From: Verrucomicrobiota bacterium
GTDB lineage: Bacteria; Verrucomicrobiota; Verrucomicrobiia; Opitutales; Coraliomargaritaceae
NCBI GenBank assembly: GCA_039045675.1
Contig: JBCCKC010000076.1
Span: 1-10,083, forward strand
Direction of reading: 5' to 3'
DNA length: 10,083 nucleotides
This document shows positions 1,486 to 9,924 of this stretch, in pieces. Position 1 is the stretch's first letter, and every line of letters begins with the position of its first letter. The position numbers and the translations under genes were made by a program. The notes below the pieces were generated by a model that saw only the letters and a program-made list of their open reading frames with translations, made no database searches and was not told where the DNA came from.

Positions 1486-1740
1486 AGCCCAAGCCGCAAA
1501 CACAGCGCTTGGGCTCTTTTGTTTCCACCACCAACAGTCTAACGGTCTCCCTTACGCCATAGTGAAGGGTAAAACGTCACGTAAATGGCGTCCAAACCAT
1601 GACCTGAAATCAGAGCATGAGAGGGGCGAAACAGCCGTCCTTGGTGGAAACAAAACCGCCCACGAAGAGCACAAATCATCACGAACTCTAAAACGACTGA
1701 TGTCTTTTTTCGTGATCATTCGTGCTCTTCGTGGGCCATT
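1486..1740. other. Highly structured non-coding region (candidate ncRNA or processed leader of the tRNA cluster)
   Basis: Three elements were seen directly. (a) A hairpin GCCCAAGC/GCTTGGGC at 1486-1516 followed by CTTTTGTTT. (b) A perfect 14-bp long-range helix, TTTTGTTTCCACCA (1517-1530) pairing with TGGTGGAAACAAAA (1642-1655), enclosing about 110 nt. (c) A 28-position hairpin with only 2 mismatches (1658-1685 pairing 1709-1736) around a 23-nt loop. The overlapping 99-aa ORF 1460-1759 has no RBS and no recognisable domain. Confidence 0.3.
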
Positions 1741-1748
1741 CTCTTTAT

Positions 1749-1825
1749 GGCGACCATAGCTTAATAGATAAAGCACCTGGCTGTGAATCGGGGGATCTCG
1801 GGTGCGATTCCCAGTGGTCGTCCCA
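1749..1825 (+). tRNA. tRNA-His (anticodon GTG), non-canonical T-loop
   Basis: Cloverleaf folded by hand. G-1 (1749) pairs with C73, giving an 8-bp acceptor GGCGACCA/TGGTCGTC, which is the histidine tRNA hallmark. The anticodon loop CTGTGAA has U33, GTG at 1783-1785 and A37. CCA is encoded (1823-1825). The T-loop is TGCGATT (G at position 55) and the T-stem is imperfect. Confidence 0.65.
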
Positions 1826-1857
1826 ATTTCGTAAGAAATCCGACTTAGTCAGAAACC

Positions 1858-1883
1858 GCTTATTCGAACTAATACGCGCTTAT
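1858..1883 (+). repeat. Degenerate copy (A-orientation) of the ~30-nt repeat family
   Basis: GAAACCGCTTATTCGAACTAATACGC aligns at about 18 of 28 positions with copy A (GAGACCGCTGATTCTCGCTTATAGACGC at 2291-2318). It sits about 20 nt upstream of the inverted copy B1, so the two could form a hairpin. Confidence 0.35.
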
Positions 1884-1904
1884 CGAACCAGGACTTTCAT
1901 CATT

Positions 1905-1946
1905 AGCGTCAATAAGCGAAGATCAGCGGTCTTCAGCTCCGCTGAA
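1905..1946 (+). repeat. Repeat family copy B1 (B-orientation)
   Basis: GCGTCAATAAGCGAAGATCAGCGGTCTTCAGCTCCGCTGAAC. The 29-nt core matches copy B2 at 23 of 29 positions and is the reverse complement of copy A. There is an internal hairpin CAGCGG/CCGCTG. Confidence 0.55.
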
Positions 1947-1964
1947 CATAAGTCCGCACCCCTT

Positions 1965-2039
1965 GCCTCATAAGTTCAACCAGCAGAACAGCCGGCTTTT
2001 AATCAGCAGGACGTGGTGCGAGTCCACGATGGGGCACCA
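1965..2039 (+). tRNA. tRNA-Lys (anticodon TTT), non-canonical T-loop
   Basis: Acceptor GCCTCAT/ATGGGGC (one G-U pair). D-arm GTTC/GAAC. Anticodon loop CTTTTAA (U33, TTT, A37) on a stem with one C-A mismatch. T-arm CGTGG-TGCGAGT-CCACG (G55). Discriminator A, with CCA encoded at 2037-2039. Confidence 0.6.
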
Positions 2040-2044
2040 ATTCC

Positions 2045-2121
2045 GGCAGAGTAGCTCAATAAGTAAGAGCGCGGGTCTCATACGCCCGAGGTTGTGGGTG
2101 CGATTCCCACCTCTGCAACCA
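2045..2121 (+). tRNA. tRNA-Met (anticodon CAT); has some initiator-like features
   Basis: Acceptor GGCAGAG/CTCTGCA with an unpaired 1-72 position (G-A). Anticodon stem CGGGT/GCCCG with three consecutive G-C pairs, and loop CTCATAC. T-arm GTGGG-TGCGATT-CCCAC (G55). A73 then CCA encoded (2119-2121). The D-loop AATAAGTAA lacks GG. C11-G24 is elongator-like, so the initiator versus elongator assignment is open. Confidence 0.7.
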
Positions 2122-2126
2122 TTTCA

Positions 2127-2197
2127 GCCCGTATCGTCTAGTAGTAGGATATCACGCTTTCCACGCGAGGACGCCGGTGCAAGTCCGGCTACGAGTA
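2127..2197 (+). tRNA. tRNA-Glu(TTC)-like (alternative fold gives Gly-TCC); non-canonical, possibly a pseudogene
   Basis: Acceptor GCCCGTA/TACGAGT (one C-A mismatch, one G-U). The D-arm GTCTAGTAGTAGGAT resembles tRNA-Glu. The anticodon region CTTTCCA/TTTCCAC is ambiguous between TTC and TCC, with position 37 = C in the Glu fold. T-arm GCCGG-TGCAAGT-CCGGC (G55). No CCA. Confidence 0.4.
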
Positions 2198-2203
2198 AGT
2201 TTT

Positions 2204-2274
2204 TGCGGGATAGTGTAAGAGCGGCACGGTGGACTTTGACTCCACTAGTGCAGGTGCAAGTCCTGCTCCCGCAA
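2204..2274 (+). tRNA. tRNA-Gln (anticodon TTG), non-canonical T-loop
   Basis: Acceptor TGCGGGA/TCCCGCA is a perfect 7 bp with U1-A72, as in E. coli tRNA-Gln. Anticodon stem GTGGA/TCCAC is perfect, with loop CTTTGAC (U33, TTG 2236-2238, A37). T-arm GCAGG-TGCAAGT-CCTGC (G55). Discriminator A, no CCA. Confidence 0.6.
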
Positions 2275-2276
2275 TT

Positions 2277-2318
2277 TTCCGGCGCAGCCGGAGACCGCTG
2301 ATTCTCGCTTATAGACGC
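2277..2318 (+). repeat. Repeat family copy A (A-orientation), immediately 3' of tRNA-Gln and 5' of the GxxExxY gene
   Basis: TTCCGGCGCAGCCGGAGACCGCTGATTCTCGCTTATAGACGC. Its reverse complement matches copy B2 (2770-2811) at 36 of 42 positions. The 29-nt core matches at 27 of 29. Confidence 0.6.
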
Positions 2319-2362
2319 TAATGGATTGAATCGACATGTAGATTGATTCATTCGTTAATCAA

Positions 2363-2770
2363 ATGACACACAGCACGGAATACATGGCTGATGAAGGTTA
2401 CGCTCTCATCGGCGCCGCATTCGAGGTCCATAGGGAACTCGGCGGTGGCCTGAGCGAAGAAATCTACCAAGAAAGCATAGAGATCGAACTCGGCATTCGA
2501 AATATCCCATTCAAATCGAAGGACGAACTAAGGGTCTTTTATAAGCAACAGCTCCTGAACAAGCGCTACATACCCGACCTCACCGTTTCAGGCGAGATCA
2601 TCACCGAACTCAAAGCCGCCAAGGAGCTCACGCACGAACATCACCGGCAACTCATCAATTACATGCGAGTCACTGAAAAAGCTGTTGGATATCTCATCAA
2701 CTTCGGCCCTACAGAAAAACTCGAGTGGAAGCGTTTCATCCTAAGAGACTTTATTCCTATAGGGCATTAG
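2363..2770 (+). CDS. GxxExxY-family small protein (PD-(D/E)xK nuclease-like fold), 135 aa
   Basis: The G-L-S-E-E-I-Y motif (GxxExxY) is present. The PD...E-L-K motif (IPDLTVSGEIITELK) and the LINFG C-terminal signature typical of this multi-copy family are also there. An alternative start at ATG 2384 (MADEGY...) is possible. No SD. Confidence 0.85.
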   Translation: MTHSTEYMADEGYALIGAAFEVHRELGGGLSEEIYQESIEIELGIRNIPFKSKDELRVFYKQQLLNKRYIPDLTVSGEIITELKAAKELTHEHHRQLINYMRVTEKAVGYLINFGPTEKLEWKRFILRDFIPIGH

Positions 2771-2811
2771 CGCCTGTAAGCGAGAATCAGCGGTCTCCAG
2801 CTATGCTGGAA
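2770..2811 (+). repeat. Repeat family copy B2 (B-orientation), starts inside the stop codon of the GxxExxY gene
   Basis: GCGCCTGTAAGCGAGAATCAGCGGTCTCCAGCTATGCTGGAA is the inverted partner of copy A (2277-2318). It is co-oriented with B1 (1905-1946). Confidence 0.6.
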
Positions 2812-2846
2812 AATTGATAACACTTTCAAATCTCTCCGGTCGGCGG

Positions 2847-2881
2847 CGCAAGGCCCTCAGGCCTCCTGTCAGGGCCTTGCG
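2847..2881 (+). terminator. GC-rich hairpin downstream of the GxxExxY gene (weak terminator or processing site)
   Basis: CGCAAGGCCCT / AGGGCCTTGCG forms an 11-bp stem with a 13-nt loop. The downstream tract TTCCGCTTCG is only weakly U-rich, so intrinsic terminator activity is uncertain. Confidence 0.3.
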
Positions 2882-2912
2882 TTCCGCTTCGACGTTCTAA
2901 ACGGAAATCCAT

Positions 2913-2987
2913 GCAAGCATAGCTTAGTTCGGTTAGAGCACCTCGTAGTTATCGGGAAGATCGCCGGTTCGAATCCGGCTGGTTGCA
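2913..2987 (+). tRNA. tRNA-Asn(GTT)-like, canonical T-loop, unusual A33
   Basis: Acceptor GCAAGCA/TGGTTGC (one G-G mismatch). D-arm GCTT-AGTTCGGTTA-GAGC with G18G19. Anticodon loop TAGTTAT (GTT at 2948-2950, position 33 = A) on a stem with a C-A mismatch. T-arm GCCGG-TTCGAAT-CCGGC is canonical. Discriminator A, no CCA. Confidence 0.5.
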
Positions 2988-2989
2988 CG

Positions 2990-3061
2990 ATACTGTTAGC
3001 TCAGAGGTAGAGCAGTTGACTCATAATCAACTAGTCCCGGGTTCAACTCCCGGACAGTAAC
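2990..3061 (+). tRNA. tRNA with anticodon CAT (elongator Met or lysidine-modified Ile2), canonical T-loop
   Basis: Acceptor ATACTGT/ACAGTAA (1-72 is A-A). D-arm GCTC-AGAGGTA-GAGC. Anticodon arm GTTGA-CTCATAA-TCAAC is perfect (CAT at 3023-3025). T-arm CCGGG-TTCAACT-CCCGG. It starts 2 nt after the preceding tRNA. Confidence 0.65.
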
Positions 3062-3143
3062 GATCATGGCGAAATTGGTATACGCACCGGTCTAAGGAAC
3101 CGTTGTCCGCAAGGACGTGTGGGTTCGAATCCCACTGATCATG
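3060..3143 (+). tRNA. Class-II tRNA-Leu; the anticodon reads AAG (A34) in the only consistent fold
   Basis: D-region TG-GCG-AAATTGGTATA-CGC is Leu-like. The long variable arm has a GTCC-GCAA-GGAC hairpin. T-arm GTGGG-TTCGAAT-CCCAC. Anticodon stem CCGGT/ACCG(T) with loop CTAAGGA (U33, AAG 3094-3096, G37). Acceptor ACGATCA/TGATCAT has one mismatch, and the 5' end apparently overlaps the previous tRNA by 2 nt, so the boundaries are uncertain. Confidence 0.5.
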
Positions 3144-3570: not shown

Positions 3571-4686
3571 ATGCTATTCTTCAAATACATCAATATCCCG
3601 TATGAGTATGTCGGTTTGAAATTCCGCGATGGTCAATTCGTCGAACTGCTCCACTCCGGGCGTCAATGGATCTACGATCTCTTTGGCCGTACTGTCGTCG
3701 ACATCGTCTGGCAGGGCGAACCATGGATTGAAATTTCCACCGCTCAGCTGAAGCAGCTCCGCGAGAACGAGGCCGTTAACAAACGGGCTGAATTCATTGA
3801 CCTGAAGGACAACCAACGCGCCCTCGTTTGGCTCGATGGTCGTTTCTACGGCATCCTCAAACCGGGCCTCTACGGCTACTGGAAAACTCCAGTCAAAACC
3901 AAGGTCGAAATCGTTGAGCTTGAAGACGTCCGTTTTCAACACGCACATTTCGACATCATGACCAAAGATAAAGACGTCGCCGTCCACCTGAACATCCAAG
4001 ACATCGAAGATGGAAAGGTCGGCGTTCTCTACGTCGACGGTGTATTCACCGAGATCCTTAAGCCAGGTCGCTACGCATTCTGGAAAAACGTGGGCATCGT
4101 CCGCATCTACCAGTATGACCTTCGTGAAAAGGTCCTCGATGTGACCGGCCAGGAAATCATGACTGCGGACAAGGTCACTCTGCGACTCAACGCAGTCCTG
4201 AGCTACCGCCTCAATGACGTCCGAAAGGTCGCCGAATCCGCAAAAGACGTCGAACAGGCGCTCTACCGTGAGATTCAGCTCATCATCCGTGCAGAAGTCG
4301 GAGGTCGCACTCTCGATCAACTGCTATCCGATAAGTCTGCAGTCGCCAACGAGGCACTGAATGCAATCCGCGCTAAAGCCTCCGGCTACGGTGTCGAAGT
4401 CAATGGTCTCGGCATCCGCGATGTCATCCTGCCGGGAGATATGAAGGAATTGCTCAACCAGGTCATCGAAGCCGAAAAAGCAGCCCAGGCGAACAACATC
4501 AAACGTCGAGAAGAAATTGCTGCCATGCGCAGCCAGCTCAACTCCGCGAAGCTGATCGAGCAAAACCCGACTCTGATGCGTCTGCGTGAGCTCGAGTCTG
4601 TCGAAAAGATCACTGAAAAGGCCAACCTGCAAATCTTCGTCGGAGATGGGCAGGAGCTCAGCAAGCGAATCGTCAAACTCATCTAG
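3571..4686 (+). CDS. SPFH/Band-7 (stomatin/prohibitin-like) domain protein with no transmembrane segment and a triplicated N-terminal beta-hairpin motif, 371 aa
   Basis: The C-terminal half (EIMTADKVTLRLNAVLSYRL...GGRTLDQLLSDKSAVANEALNAIRAKASGYGVEVNGLGIRDVILPGDMKE...AEKAAQANNIKRREE) is a typical SPFH domain followed by a coiled coil. The N-terminus carries three repeats of the SPFH-initiating motif (GQFVELLHSGRQW / GRFYGILKPGLYGYWK / GVFTEILKPGRYAFWK). There is no hydrophobic anchor. A strong terminator follows. Confidence 0.85.
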   Translation: MLFFKYINIPYEYVGLKFRDGQFVELLHSGRQWIYDLFGRTVVDIVWQGEPWIEISTAQLKQLRENEAVNKRAEFIDLKDNQRALVWLDGRFYGILKPGLYGYWKTPVKTKVEIVELEDVRFQHAHFDIMTKDKDVAVHLNIQDIEDGKVGVLYVDGVFTEILKPGRYAFWKNVGIVRIYQYDLREKVLDVTGQEIMTADKVTLRLNAVLSYRLNDVRKVAESAKDVEQALYREIQLIIRAEVGGRTLDQLLSDKSAVANEALNAIRAKASGYGVEVNGLGIRDVILPGDMKELLNQVIEAEKAAQANNIKRREEIAAMRSQLNSAKLIEQNPTLMRLRELESVEKITEKANLQIFVGDGQELSKRIVKLI

Positions 4687-5599: not shown

Positions 5600-7410
5600 A
5601 TCATTTAGAAAGTATACTAATTCTGTCTGCCCTTTCGATTTTTGCCGGATCACCATCCGAGGCGGCAAACTTCAGTTTCAATTACACTGATTCGAACGGA
5701 TTTGGATTCTTTGATAACACGCCAGTCGATCCGGTTGGTGGCAATACGGGGACAACACTCGGTGAGCAACGACGCATCCTGCTTGAACAAGCTGCAAGCG
5801 TCTGGGGTAGCTATCTGGAGAGTGGTCAAACGATCGTAATCGAAGCACGTTTCCTGCAGCTTGGAGGTACACAATTCAGTGCAACGCTCGCATTTGCGGG
5901 GCCTGAATCGCTTTTCAGAAATTTCTCCGGGGCACCAATGGCGAATGTCTACTATGTCTCTGCACTTGCCGACAGCTTATCCGGATCTGAAAATGAACCG
6001 GGATTTCCCGATTTATCCGTCACCATAAACGAATCTGTTGATTCAAATCCGACCGTACTCGGAGGTGGCGGGTTTTACTATGGTCTCGATAATGAAGCAC
6101 CAGGTAACCAAGCGGACTTGCTCTCTACTCTGCTCCATGAAATCGGCCACGGCCTCGGCTTTCTCTCCACTGTAAGCGATACGACCGGACAGCTCTTCAA
6201 TGGCAGTCCCGATAGTTTTTCACTCTTGATCCACGATGAGGAGACAGAGGAGGCATGGATCGATATGACGAACGCAGAGCGGGCAAATTCTGCAATCAAC
6301 GATCCCGACGTGACTTTCCTCGGTCCAGCGACAGCGCAGGCGAAAGCACGACAGCTAAAACCAGAATTTGGCGGCGCAGTCGTAAACCATATCAATTCGA
6401 GCGGTGCAACAATCACCGCTTTCTCTGCTCAATCCGGTAATTTCGGATGGGGTATTCCCAATTGGAGCCTTTCCGGGAGACTCGTTCTCGTTGATGACGG
6501 CTCTGGAGTAACCAGCGATGCCTGCCAGGGACCATTTATCAATGAAGAAGAAGTTCTCGGACAAATTGTTTTAATCGACCGGGGAAACTGCAATTTCGAT
6601 GAAAAAGTAGCTAGAGCTCAGGACGCAGGAGCAATCGCCGTCATCATCGCCAATAACCAAGGAAATAATCTCGTAACGATGTTCGGAAATGATGAAAGCA
6701 TCACAATCCCCTCGGTCTTTGTGGGACAAAGCGACGGGAATACTTTGAAAGCACTAGCTGCCGGCTCTCTGGTCGAGATTGACTACACGGCGGAAAGAGC
6801 AGGCACGCAAAACGGCAATATACGCCTGCACGCACCAAACCCGGTTGCCTCGGGCTCGAGTATCTCTCATTGGTCCAGCGATACGTATCCAGATCTATTG
6901 ATGGAGCCAAGCATCTCTGATGCACGCCTCCCTCAACTCGATCTCACCATTCTTGCTATGCGAGATATTGGATGGTCGATCACTGGAATCGAAATTCCTT
7001 ACCTTTCCTACGACATTTGGGCTTCGGAAGAGATTTCCGGGCCCAATACAGGACGAACTCAGGACGCTGATGGCGATAACTTTACAAATTTTTTCGAATA
7101 TGCATTCGATACCAACCCTGAGGAGTCCAGCGATACACCAACCACCCCGGTGATCCAAATAAACCAATCATCAAGTAGTTTGTTTGAGATCGATTATAAT
7201 CGAAATCGGCTCGCCGGCGATGTGATCTACAACCTGAGACAAACGAACGATCTCACCGTCCCAAACACAAGCCCGATCTACGGGGACGTCCATCGGCAAA
7301 CCGACGTGACCAACATCGGTGAATCGAGTCAAATCATAGAATGGGAGATCGAAAGCACTGCTCAGAATGAATTCTATTCGATTGAAGCAGTAGAATTTCA
7401 GGAGCAGTAA
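5596..7410 (+). CDS. Secreted zinc metalloprotease (HExxH) with an embedded PA (protease-associated) domain and a C-terminal Ca-binding-like segment, 604 aa
   Basis: N-terminal signal peptide MNHLESILILSALSIFAGSPSEA. Zinc motif HEIGHGLGF (HExxHxxGF, with no third His in the metzincin position). PA-domain signature ...IVLIDRGNCNFDEKVARAQDAGAIAVIIANNQGN...PSVFVGQSDG... Also SISHWSSD/LMEP and a C-terminal DADGDNFTNFFEYAFD segment. A weak GAGG sits upstream of the ATG. Confidence 0.85.
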   Translation: MNHLESILILSALSIFAGSPSEAANFSFNYTDSNGFGFFDNTPVDPVGGNTGTTLGEQRRILLEQAASVWGSYLESGQTIVIEARFLQLGGTQFSATLAFAGPESLFRNFSGAPMANVYYVSALADSLSGSENEPGFPDLSVTINESVDSNPTVLGGGGFYYGLDNEAPGNQADLLSTLLHEIGHGLGFLSTVSDTTGQLFNGSPDSFSLLIHDEETEEAWIDMTNAERANSAINDPDVTFLGPATAQAKARQLKPEFGGAVVNHINSSGATITAFSAQSGNFGWGIPNWSLSGRLVLVDDGSGVTSDACQGPFINEEEVLGQIVLIDRGNCNFDEKVARAQDAGAIAVIIANNQGNNLVTMFGNDESITIPSVFVGQSDGNTLKALAAGSLVEIDYTAERAGTQNGNIRLHAPNPVASGSSISHWSSDTYPDLLMEPSISDARLPQLDLTILAMRDIGWSITGIEIPYLSYDIWASEEISGPNTGRTQDADGDNFTNFFEYAFDTNPEESSDTPTTPVIQINQSSSSLFEIDYNRNRLAGDVIYNLRQTNDLTVPNTSPIYGDVHRQTDVTNIGESSQIIEWEIESTAQNEFYSIEAVEFQEQ

Positions 7411-8028: not shown

Positions 8029-9891
8029 TTACACACTTGAAATAACGGCAGAAGGGAGCGAGCTCTCGCTATGCAGCGGAGCAAAAATCACCTCCCGTTG
8101 TTGCAGGGAAAGTTCAAGCGCGTTTCTAAAATCCGCAAAGACAAAGGGTTTACTAAAGTAGTGGTTCATCCCGACATTCAGGCATTTTTCGCGATCTCCA
8201 GACATAGCATGAGCCGTTACCGCCGTTATAAATATATCCTTACAACGGACACCTGCATTACCCTTCCGGATTTCCTGAGTCGCGACATAGCCATCCATGA
8301 CCGGCATTTGGCAATCCATGAAGATACAATCGAAAGTATCGTTTCTGAGGTATTCAAGAGCTGTTTTCCCATTATCTGCGATGGAGACTTTGCAGTTCAG
8401 CTTAAGCAGAAGCCTGCGTGCAAGCTGTTGGTTAACGATGTTGTCCTCAACAAGTAGTACGTGGATACCTGAGTAGTCCTTGCGGTTTCCTTTCACCTCA
8501 GGAGTGCACTTCAACTTTTGCTTGATCGGCTCATGAGCCTTTTGAACACCTTCCTCAAGATGAGGTGGAAATGGGATAACAAAGGAAAATGTGCTACCAC
8601 CGCTAGCTGGGCTATCGTGTTCAATCTCTCCACCCAGGATATCGACGAGACTCTTACAGATGGAAAGTCCAAGCCCAGTCCCGCCATACTTACGAACATG
8701 AGACCCATCAACCTGCGTAAACGGCTCAAATAGATCTGCTGTCTTATTGGGTGGAATTCCGATTCCGTTATCGCTTACTTCCGTCAGAATTGCCGGACCA
8801 TCGTGGTATTCGACCGTGGTCAAATAGACCTCAATCATCCCAGCATCTGTAAATTTTACAGCGTTGCTGATCAAATTATTCAGAATTTGCTGATACCGAT
8901 GCGGATCGCCCAAAACCCAGGCTGGGGTATCATCAAAATTGACAATCAGATCGATTTCTTTCTCTGAGGCCGACTCTGCATAGAGGGCTGCCGAAGATTC
9001 CACGACCTCCGTTAAATTAAAAGGCATGCTCTCGACGGTAAATTTACCCGCTTCGATTTTTGAGAAGTCGAGGATATCGTTGATGATACGCATGAGCGTC
9101 TCTGCACTGCTCAATGCAGTAGTCACTAACTGATCTTGCTCCTCATCAAGATTCGTATCGTAGAGTAGATCAATCATCCCAAAGACGCCGTTCATTGGAG
9201 TTCGAATCTCATGACTCATGTTTGCTAAAAATTGGCTCTTCATCCGTACTCCTTCGAGCGCCTGGTCGCGCGAGATCGCCAACTTCTCGTTCGTCAGTTC
9301 CAGATCGCGCTTCACCTTGATAACCTGACTGTGTTGAAGCGCGATGCGTTCTTTCTGCACTCGGAGCTCCTGCATGTGCTTACCGACGAAGCCGTGCATA
9401 AGACGAGTTATTGCAGTCGAGGAAATCAGTCCAAAATAGGATCCATCGTGGTTCGCCAGAATAACGTGCTCATTCAATCGTGCGTCTGATCGAGTAAACG
9501 CTGAATCAAACACGACGTCCAATTCCGTTCCGTATTCGATAATCAAGGGATCAGAAATGATTAGATCCTCACTTAGAGTGGTTGGCGCTGCCTCCTCAGA
9601 CTTCGATTTTTTCTGAAACAGCCCCCGTTTGGCGGGCTCGGCAGCGGGCGGCCTCTCCGCACGACGGACTAACCCAACCGGAACTTCACCACGCAGGACC
9701 GCAAAATATCGGCTGTCGTTTTGTTCAGACAGCTCATACAGCGCCTCCATATCCGCATCGATCGGGATACTTAACCGGTGACAGACCAACATTTTGAGGT
9801 CTGTAGGCTTCAATGTCTGGGGTGATGGCATTAGATAAGTATCAGGTTTATTACTTAAAACCATGTTAAAAACCAACTGCAAGCAACCCAC
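8029..9891 (-). CDS. Hybrid sensor histidine kinase/response regulator (cytoplasmic; N-terminal CBS-like sensor, HisKA, HATPase_c, C-terminal REC)
   Basis: H-box FLANMSHEIRTPMNGVFGMIDLL. ATPase N/G-boxes (ISNAVKFTDAGMIEV..., VSDNGIGIPPNKTADLFEPF, GGTGLGLSICKSLVDILGG). Receiver domain IHVLLVEDNIVNQQ...FDCIFMDCQMPVMDGY...SKP. The N-terminal ~220 aa has two CBS-like segments (YFAVLRGEVPVGLVRR; ILANHDGSYFGLISSTAITRLM) split by a low-complexity linker, and no TM helices. Start is either GTG 9891 or ATG 9864. Confidence 0.9.
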   Translation of the reverse strand: MGCLQLVFNMVLSNKPDTYLMPSPQTLKPTDLKMLVCHRLSIPIDADMEALYELSEQNDSRYFAVLRGEVPVGLVRRAERPPAAEPAKRGLFQKKSKSEEAAPTTLSEDLIISDPLIIEYGTELDVVFDSAFTRSDARLNEHVILANHDGSYFGLISSTAITRLMHGFVGKHMQELRVQKERIALQHSQVIKVKRDLELTNEKLAISRDQALEGVRMKSQFLANMSHEIRTPMNGVFGMIDLLYDTNLDEEQDQLVTTALSSAETLMRIINDILDFSKIEAGKFTVESMPFNLTEVVESSAALYAESASEKEIDLIVNFDDTPAWVLGDPHRYQQILNNLISNAVKFTDAGMIEVYLTTVEYHDGPAILTEVSDNGIGIPPNKTADLFEPFTQVDGSHVRKYGGTGLGLSICKSLVDILGGEIEHDSPASGGSTFSFVIPFPPHLEEGVQKAHEPIKQKLKCTPEVKGNRKDYSGIHVLLVEDNIVNQQLARRLLLKLNCKVSIADNGKTALEYLRNDTFDCIFMDCQMPVMDGYVATQEIRKGNAGVRCKDIFITAVTAHAMSGDREKCLNVGMNHYFSKPFVFADFRNALELSLQQREVIFAPLHSESSLPSAVISSV

Positions 9892-9924
9892 AAGAACACC
9901 CAGTTCGGGTATTCAACGTAGAAT

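Follow-up and report, generated by a model that had tools for sequence, protein, structure and literature searches.

The window examined here is a stretch of 10,083 nt from a contig of a Verrucomicrobiota bacterium (GenBank JBCCKC010000076.1), and it includes a plus-strand tRNA array of the bacterial chromosome. Between tRNA-Gln and the next tRNA gene of the array lies a gene of the GxxExxY family, bounded by two inverted copies, A and B2, of a 45-nt repeat that we call an arm. Upstream, between tRNA-His and tRNA-Lys, two further arms, A' and B1, flank a spacer of 18 nt. The four arms, located with a hidden Markov model (HMM) of the repeat, form two elements, in each of which the mini-hairpins of the arms are outermost (Table 1). 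Repeat searches relate the copies as follows. A and B2 lie in an inverted repeat of 52 nt (2272-2323 and 2765-2816; 88% complementary) that encloses the gene, B1 is a direct copy of B2 (1901-1944 versus 2765-2808; 82% identical over 44 nt), and B1 and A share an inverted match of 42 nt. A 29-nt core of the repeat has two matches in the window at three or fewer mismatches, with none expected in 200 shuffles. A sequence-only reading of the window had reported four copies of the repeat, with A and B2 inverted, A starting 3 nt after tRNA-Gln and the TAG stop codon of the gene falling in B2. These claims stand: the copies are present far beyond chance, the A/B2 repeat is longer than had been claimed, and the TAG (2768-2770) lies inside the innermost B2 box, ATTAGCG. 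The coordinates of the copies were revised, in that the units are 45 nt long and the 1858-1883 given for A' covers its box part only.

The 443-nt interior between A and B2 is the GxxExxY gene. Its product matches PF13366 (PDDEXK_3; E = 1.6e-37, 128.9 bits against a cut-off of 22) and TIGR04256 (E = 1.2e-36, 125.6 bits against a cut-off of 35), and these are its sole Pfam/NCBIfam matches. The catalytic motifs D72, E82-x-K84, and Q96-xxx-Y100 are each at least 90% conserved in 68 homologues, and the AlphaFold 2 model has a nuclease fold with a predicted local distance difference test score (pLDDT) of 93.5. From profile and model, the protein is predicted to be a Cas4/RecB-like PD-(D/E)xK nuclease with intact catalytic residues. 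It shares the D, ExK, and QxxxY motifs with Cas4 and RecB but contains no cysteines, and so no iron-sulfur cluster, and is therefore not Cas4 proper. It is also shorter than Cas4 (135 versus about 200 residues), matches the Cas4 model among the PADLOC defence-system models only marginally (E = 0.015), and has no CRISPR context: the neighbours are the tRNA genes, a Band-7 protein, a protease, and a kinase. A sequence search of the PDB gave no meaningful match, and a look-up of the exact protein gave no record. About 9,400 representatives at 50% identity match the protein, and a survey of PD-(D/E)xK proteins entered GxxExxY/PF13366 as "unknown". The searchable literature gave no account of GxxExxY/PF13366 biology, with no description of flanking repeats in full text, and searches on GxxExxY, PF13366, PDDEXK_3, and REPIN/RAYT (the palindromic repeats and transposases compared below) in Verrucomicrobia gave no description of an arm-gene-arm architecture. 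The gene is co-directional with the tRNA genes, and a consensus scan finds no promoter-like site of its own; the cassette is probably expressed by read-through from the tRNA operon.

Arms aligned from several genomes give the 45-nt consensus TCCRGC-nnA-GCYGGA-rA-C-CGCTnAT-nnn-CGCTnAT-nnA-CGCTTAT, that is, a 15-nt mini-hairpin, with a stem of 6 bp and a loop of 3 nt whose last base is A, and then three CGCTnAT boxes whose starts are 10 nt apart. Because of the 10-bp spacing, the boxes lie on one face of the DNA helix. Conservation was analyzed in 72 unique arms, in which positions 29-45 were free of constraint from the search pattern. The boxes are nearly invariant, including those positions, with free variation in the spacers between them and at the central base of every box. 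This is the conservation signature of putative sequence-specific recognition sites on one helix face, rather than that of a generic stem. In the mini-hairpin, 98.6% of the cells are paired and four of the six pairs display compensatory changes, values that none of 500 shuffles reached. Covariation in the hairpin is strictly Watson-Crick: at pair 4/12, 36 arms have A-T, 35 have G-C, and none has a mismatch, under a search pattern that left all four combinations open. Compensated switches occur at pairs 1/15 and 2/14 as well, and the third loop base is A in 70 of the 72 arms. The outer flanks of 73 arms carry no consistent GTAG or CGTC tag, the sole bias being an A at position -2. Rfam gives no match on the arms of the window at E values up to 1. 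A terminator or promoter role of the arms was ruled out by consensus scans: no arm is called as an intrinsic terminator on the plus strand, the sole in-arm call is the decayed A' hairpin on the minus strand, and terminator calls are as numerous as shuffles lead one to expect.

The sequence-only reading had asked whether other GxxExxY genes have the same flanks. Homologues were chosen by protein (61-74% identical) from Coraliomargarita, Opitutaceae, and marine metagenomes, and the same arms stand at the GxxExxY gene in all six independent Verrucomicrobial loci, which have unrelated neighbourhoods (MotA and PGM; a hexapeptide transferase and FeoA; GH106 and SASA; a glycosyltransferase; the tRNA array; and one locus, L004, with inward-facing arms). 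The 29-nt core is not unique to the window. The hairpins are outermost in five of the six loci, as in the window. Comparison of L006 with L088 for synteny at FeoA gave no neighbour in common. Within some 75 kb surrounding four Opitutae-class cassettes, arms are found beside the GxxExxY gene and nowhere else.

A pattern scan of metagenomes, followed by searches with the arm HMM and tblastn, gave at least 120 arm-bearing stretches. Among the matches listed, a GxxExxY gene is present in about 12 of 120 loci, every close GxxExxY homologue is flanked by arms, and most arms are gene-less. The inner spacers form a series of 15-71 nt, 98-267 nt, and 419-500 nt, the last being those of full cassettes. 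Internal deletion is seen directly in L036, which is L108 minus 68 codons, and gene remnants are kept at the N-terminus in L023 and L101 and at the C-terminus in L057. The remnants imply that a part, at least, of the gene-less copies arose from cassettes through deletion. The commonest form is a short hairpin with a spacer of 15-71 nt, often with a partner arm that has no mini-hairpin, and solo arms are also found. About 25 non-redundant short elements, together with window 1839-1946, are small, have terminal inverted repeats, and lack coding capacity. Near-identical gene-less copies are dispersed in different flanks in the same metagenomes (88-97% identity over 300-600 nt). In a metagenome-assembled genome (MAG) of Roseibacillus (L003), two ordinary genes are separated by a more distantly related hairpin that shares the three-box layout.

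Some arm pairs face inward. These share a conserved 25-nt linker, gtgccacactagcaatgcaagagaa, which lies inside the dispersed 300-600-nt repeat whose copies are 88-97% identical. Such a linker is what one would expect where the ends of neighbouring or circularised elements meet. Inward pairs with this linker were seen in L010, L011, L015, L016, L021, L024, L025, L029, L034, L039, and L056, and further in L060, L063, L064, L079, L084, L102, L109, L112, L125, L127, and L128; they are sometimes tandem, with a period of 302-327 nt. In L004, the gene lies between two direct copies of a stretch of about 40 nt that comprises CCATTCATACGCAGACTYAG and part of an arm (9870-9912 and 10493-10535), and the motif CTCATGCTCTGCATT lies just outside one arm in four loci (L004, L014, L036, and L061). 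These two observations suggest that the element may extend beyond the hairpin.

Within the window, the stretch 1839-1946 is a decayed gene-less copy between tRNA-His and tRNA-Lys. Arm A' is degenerate: the mini-hairpin TCCGAC-TTA-GTCAGA is followed by CGCTTAT, a decayed box GAACTAAT, and CGCTTAT. The B1 mini-hairpin, TTCAGC-GGA-GCTGAA, shows a compensated C:G to T:A change. The spacer ends in GACTTTCATC, which is weakly similar to the GACTTTATTCC that closes the gene ahead of arm B2, and the spacer may be a gene remnant. The sequence-only reading had described A' and B1 as a second, hairpin-forming inverted pair and the repeats as bracketing a tRNA block. The pair is there, but its hairpin is weak (the arms match at 24 of 45 positions; fold z-score -2.4), and A'/B1 form a derivative element rather than one side of a bracket.

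The same locus is seen in a relative, contig L141. There, the order is His, element 1a, Asn, Phe, a third tRNA-like gene, element 1b, Lys, Met, Glu, Gln, and the cassette. The window has a single element where L141 has 1a and 1b, and lacks the three intervening genes (Asn, Phe, and one undetected tRNA-like gene). Arm A' and the spacer are nearly identical to those of 1a, and B1 is a chimera of the right arms of 1a and 1b. The chimeric arm indicates crossing-over between arms in direct orientation, which either removed the three tRNAs here or added them in the relative. The tRNA array as a whole (window 1750-3143 versus L141 668-2431) changes fast between these two close relatives: the tRNA that follows the cassette is called as Asn(GTT) here and as SeC(TCA), of 72 nt, in L141, and neighbouring tRNAs abut or overlap (2988/2989 and 3060-3062).

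Table 1. Arms, elements, and other features of the window around the tRNA array.
Feature	Position	Strand	Remarks
Inverted pair near the next repeat	1510-1530 / 1642-1662		
Inverted repeat unrelated to the arms	1648-1746		38-nt arms, 84% complementary, 23-nt loop; directly 5' of tRNA-His
tRNA-His	1750-1825	+	
Arm A', left arm of gene-less element 1	1839-1883	+	Consensus match with 10 mismatches; nhmmer 23 bits
Spacer of gene-less element 1, 18 nt	1884-1901	.	Ends in GACTTTCATC
Arm B1, right arm of gene-less element 1	1902-1946	-	nhmmer 48 bits; 82% identical to B2
tRNA, Lys by anticodon loop CU-UUU-AA	1965-2036	+	Rfam match; missed by ARAGORN
tRNA-Met	2045-2121	+	
tRNA	2127-2197	+	Rfam match, missed by ARAGORN; orthologue called Glu by ARAGORN in relative
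tRNA-Gln	2204-2274	+	
Full element (cassette)	2278-2810		Between tRNA-Gln and next tRNA
Arm A, upstream terminal inverted repeat of cassette	2278-2322	+	nhmmer 51 bits; identical in relative L001/L141; starts 3 nt past tRNA-Gln
Mini-hairpin of arm A	2278-2292	+	TCCGGC-GCA-GCCGGA
Boxes of arm A	2296-2302, 2306-2312, 2316-2322	+	CGCTGAT, CGCTTAT, CGCTAAT
GxxExxY open reading frame, 135 aa	2363-2770	+	
Arm B2, downstream terminal inverted repeat of cassette	2766-2810	-	nhmmer 50 bits
Mini-hairpin of arm B2	2796-2810	-	TCCAGC-ATA-GCTGGA
GC-rich hairpin	2845-2882		GCAAGGCCCT...AGGGCCTTGC; between cassette and tRNA-Asn
tRNA-Asn, tRNA-Met, tRNA-Leu	2913-3143	+	
Direct repeat in Band-7/SPFH gene	3833-3886 / 4034-4087		54 nt, 70% identical, 201 nt apart

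A filled and an empty site could be compared in SAR406, where a GxxExxY gene from a sister branch of the family, one that uses CACGGAA boxes, lies between trpG and trpD. A look-up of an 88%-identical trpD gave ten contigs that have no GxxExxY gene and in which ATGA is shared by the overlapping ends of trpG and trpD. The empty allele reads ...GATAAAATC ATGAAA CAAATATTAG..., and the filled allele reads ...AGAACC ATGAAA [496 nt] ATGAAA CAAATATTAG.... The 496-nt insert, which consists of boxes, gene, and boxes, begins with AACACGGAATGCACTAAG and ends with TTCCGTGTGTTTTGTGTATTCCGTAGGTGACCAAAA. Thus, in this one event, the boxes-gene-boxes unit is a discrete insertion with a 6-bp duplication, ATGAAA, that includes the trpD start codon. 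Both host genes are intact, trpG gaining a 9-residue tail that ends in a box. The boxes are within the inserted DNA and none is present at the empty site, which argues against the arms being a pre-existing palindromic target.

Several distant GxxExxY genes, mostly in other phyla, are flanked by strong inverted triplets of a different, CAC-type heptamer, 8-10 nt apart and often flush with the start and stop codons. Desulfamplus has CACGGAA triplets around a gene between hsdS and hsdM, a 2-Mb contig has CACGAAA triplets, and Planctomycetota has CACGAAT triplets around a gene between a NERD-kinase gene and an MmeI-like methylase gene. In Bacteroides finegoldii, the boxes are CACAGAG, CGCAGAG, and CACGGAG, and the gene lies between radA and a gene for an FAD-dependent protein. 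SAR406 and Treponema have degenerate CAC-type boxes. Contig L050 carries both box systems, CGCTTAT arms and the CACGGAG boxes of a paralogue, each with its own gene partner. At the loci fetched from other phyla, as at the window, the GxxExxY gene is co-directional with its neighbours. In L139, a Fusobacteria plasmid, the repeat CAGATTTAATCCGTGTACCTAT, containing one CACGGA box, stands on both sides of the GxxExxY gene.

We favour the reading that the arms are terminal inverted repeats of a family of miniature mobile cassettes with non-autonomous derivatives, and consider it probable. The suggestion of the sequence-only reading that the gene and its short flanks form a unit like a miniature transposable cassette is thereby supported, and it withstands the refuting outcomes which that reading had set for it. 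The full element would be a promoterless cassette of about 530 bp, consisting of an arm, a GxxExxY gene of about 400 bp, and the same arm inverted, and dependent for expression on host read-through. The boxes, three per end, are putative binding sites for the encoded nuclease, because the element encodes nothing else, different protein clades go with different box sequences, and one contig has two systems with a partner each. The mini-hairpin would act as a DNA structure. We infer that the nuclease moves the cassette: it would cut at the element ends or at the target and so mobilise both full and gene-less copies, as the REP-associated tyrosine transposases (RAYTs) do for REPINs, the hairpin-forming doublets of repetitive extragenic palindromic (REP) sequences. 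A stronger proposal, which we put forward tentatively and hold to be possible rather than probable, is that GxxExxY cassettes are a minimal class of prokaryotic transposable element in which the Cas4/RecB-fold nuclease of about 130 residues is itself the transposase. Such an enzyme would recognise three phased heptamer boxes per end plus, in Verrucomicrobia, a terminal DNA hairpin, would insert the cassette at gene junctions inside operons, and would drive large populations of gene-less palindromic repeats.

Several observations weigh against this picture. For the Verrucomicrobial CGCTTAT family, no pair of filled and empty sites was found, and a flank-joining search of 129 loci for empty sites gave only microhomology deletions of half an arm, none of them clean. 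Empty sites, a check suggested by the sequence-only reading, were found in the SAR406 branch and not in the Verrucomicrobial family; target-site duplications, which it had advised looking for beside A and B2, are not visible at CGCTTAT arm ends. The sole duplication seen is of 6 bp, in an A-rich context, in one event. No identical cassette was seen in two genomic contexts, P0071 being at one locus in all 24 contigs read. That most arms are gene-less also counts here, as do the inward-facing arms around the gene in L004, which a simple transposon model does not predict, and the direct, rather than inverted, flanking repeats in L139 and in L140 (Prevotella). Arms are absent at a close homologue on a viral contig (L153) and at distant viral homologues; the 12 GxxExxY loci from IMG/VR are mostly distant homologues without arms, and a phage collection gave no GxxExxY homologue of P0365. 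That the GxxExxY protein binds the boxes is something that we purely infer, and we know of no PD-(D/E)xK protein established as a stand-alone transposase.

The long inverted repeat might instead act in RNA. The transcript of 2260-2830 is predicted to close an inter-arm stem of about 50 bp (-189.7 kcal/mol, z-score -6.2). Much as with intervening sequences in 23S rRNA, the 5' and 3' arms would pair and RNase III would cut the stem, freeing the nuclease mRNA from the tRNA or operon precursor; in a variant, the terminal mini-hairpins would protect the ends of the excised mRNA, and the inverted repeat would be a device for expression or insulation. The arms are expected to be transcribed, given the lack of a promoter-like site and the co-direction of the gene with host genes, the boxes abut the start and stop codons, and the hairpins are outermost, where a processed mRNA would be capped. 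We nevertheless consider this explanation unlikely. Where the arms of nine cassettes disagree in the box region, the mismatch is non-pairing in 21 cases, A·C in 6, and G·U in 4, with no wobble bias for the sense strand. A cassette usually has one hairpin version in one arm and another in the second (TCCGGC versus TCCAGC), each self-complementary but mismatching its counterpart. The self-paired hairpins and the mismatch spectrum point to selection on the local hairpin and the boxes rather than on inter-arm pairing. We regard the long stem as a by-product of both arms sharing one consensus, and we rejected it as a selected feature, for which the mismatch spectrum gives no support. Moreover, G·U occurs at the covarying position 4/12 in none of 71 hairpins, the boxes are conserved in sequence, beyond complementarity, and with fixed spacing, and inward-facing pairs, solo arms, and gene-less copies are common. 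The sequence-only reading had offered a REP-like element for RNA processing or termination as its own alternative; the arms elsewhere are indeed mostly gene-less and REP/MITE-like, but the substitution patterns do not support RNA processing and no arm is called as a terminator on the plus strand.

The preponderance of gene-less arms, with a gene at about 12 of the 120 listed metagenome loci, the abundance of short hairpins with 15-71-nt spacers, and the Roseibacillus hairpin between two ordinary genes would also fit an account in which the arms are ordinary REP-like host repeats and GxxExxY genes insert in the loop of the palindrome, the flanks being a split target. This account is quite unlikely in our judgement, since the SAR406 boxes come with the insert, intermediates keep gene remnants, the box differs by protein clade (CGCTTAT versus CACGRAA) with both types and their own partners on L050, and arms occur only beside the gene in the 75 kb around the four Opitutae-class cassettes. 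Three phased boxes on one helix face are also typical of regulator binding arrays. The boxes could accordingly be operators, bound by the GxxExxY protein or a host regulator, that control read-through on both sides, the cassettes being non-mobile and spread solely by ordinary recombination and horizontal transfer; that no identical copies were found in multiple contexts agrees with this. We think such a role improbable as the explanation of the whole, given the discrete SAR406 insertion with its duplication at a gene junction, the near-identical gene-less copies in different flanks, and conserved residues that are those of a nuclease catalytic center, not of a repressor-like domain.

Taken as a mobile cassette family, the arrangement would work most like REPIN/RAYT systems and like miniature inverted-repeat transposable elements (MITEs) with an autonomous parent. 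As in REPIN/RAYT systems, a short, intergenic, hairpin-containing repeat stands in inverted orientation on either side of a small gene and is far more abundant elsewhere as gene-less inverted pairs with short spacers, and there is no obvious target duplication at the repeat ends. As with MITEs and their autonomous parents, such as the Correia/NEMIS elements of Neisseria, there are terminal inverted repeats on elements of 100-600 bp, a series from gene-bearing to internally deleted to minimal copies, and insertion between genes with co-transcription with the neighbours. The cassettes fail the defining tests of both (PMC3733652, PMC3116915), because an HUH/Y1 or DDE enzyme and a GTAG tag are lacking and no duplication is visible at Verrucomicrobial arm ends. 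REPs are defined by a conserved GTAG (or CGTC) tetranucleotide at the 5' end of the palindrome (PMC3733652), and RAYTs are typically single-copy per genome, whereas GxxExxY genes are multi-copy (PMC5581495). The enclosed protein here is a PD-(D/E)xK (PF13366) nuclease and not an HUH/Y1 (IS200/IS605-like) transposase, and the 45-nt arms carry three phased heptamer boxes beside a very short hairpin, without a consistent tag; RAYT-type REP identity was ruled out by these defining motifs. Compared with MITE parents, the gene-bearing element has no DDE transposase, its arms are made of repeated boxes rather than a simple terminal inverted repeat, and its Verrucomicrobial arm ends show no target duplication.

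Mu and Tn7 resemble the cassettes in having several phased, inverted protein-binding repeats per end, binding at the boxes here being only presumed. TnsA, the PD-(D/E)xK nuclease of Tn7, has a restriction-enzyme fold and takes part in end cleavage, a role that the GxxExxY nuclease would share. Those elements are, however, many kilobases long and need a DDE transposase, whereas here a protein of about 130 residues is the sole product. With ORF (open reading frame)-bearing 23S rRNA intervening sequences and free-standing homing endonuclease genes, the cassette shares a small selfish ORF set in a highly expressed, conserved unit that is not destroyed, and inverted flanks able to form a stem that RNase III could cut. 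It differs in not lying in an rRNA helix, in flanks that are sequence-specific box arrays, and in the abundance of gene-less copies, and one insertion is flanked by a target duplication, something not generated when homing proceeds by gene conversion. Two other identities were tried and rejected. An insertion sequence of a known family is ruled out, as no DDE, HUH, serine, or tyrosine transposase is encoded, judging by Pfam/NCBIfam matches; and an integron cassette with attC is ruled out by boxes of the form CGCTnAT/ATnAGCG rather than RYYYAAC...GTTRRRY, by the lack of an integrase among the ORFs of the window, and by the lack of an Rfam match.

As to the locus itself, the remaining genes of the window, for the Band-7 protein, a PA-domain metalloprotease, and a hybrid histidine kinase, are ordinary chromosomal genes. 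The closest public sequence, the Verrucomicrobiota MAG contig JBCDIN010000133, has the same cassette, with a protein 96% identical. The sequence-only reading had taken tRNA adjacency as a clue to movement. In 854 kb of arm-bearing loci, arms abut tRNA genes solely at the locus of the window; the tRNA-side position is therefore incidental, and targeting of tRNAs by the arms was ruled out on the same ground. The inverted repeat 5' of tRNA-His, which has sub-threshold microRNA-like Rfam matches only, is a candidate terminator, processing hairpin, or further palindromic element. The GC-rich hairpin downstream of the cassette is kept in relative L001 and may separate two tRNA transcription units. 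The direct repeat in the Band-7/SPFH gene is probably an internal domain duplication.

Other insertions were met in the arm-bearing metagenome contigs. L014 has two insertions, of about 95 nt each, of a different mini-element with the common sequence ...GGTAAA...GGGTGCCCTTTGGGCG..., one in the gene (about 6219-6302) and one in an arm (near 5775-5872); the same mini-element is present in L044, L046, and L051, and L094, otherwise 99% identical to L014, is empty at both places. L051 (5090-6512) carries a 1.4-kb insertion relative to L014 (1823-1842), the contigs being otherwise 94-99% identical, and this is probably an unrelated mobile element. In L056 (1158-2577), genes for a RelE/ParE-like toxin and a Phd/YefM-like antitoxin, as judged from their translations only, lie between arms 1.3 kb apart.

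The recurrence of inverted box triplets around GxxExxY genes in several phyla suggests a so far undescribed kind of miniature mobile element, and the order boxes-gene-boxes is apparently an undescribed design rule for a large family of orphan nucleases. With the arm model, one can recognise a family of repeats at which Verrucomicrobial assemblies break; the family also mediates rearrangements, such as the three-tRNA difference at the locus of the window. The box-protein pairs may also give compact sequence-specific DNA-binding nucleases. If the nuclease does mobilise the cassette, it would be a type of transposase outside the DDE, HUH, serine, and tyrosine classes, and a second protein, independent of the RAYTs, that maintains a population of palindromic repeats; this would account for the GxxExxY family being multi-copy and scattered over many phyla. 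The boxes-gene-boxes rule, together with the one insertion observed, offers a testable explanation for the multi-copy, scattered, and within-operon distribution of GxxExxY genes.

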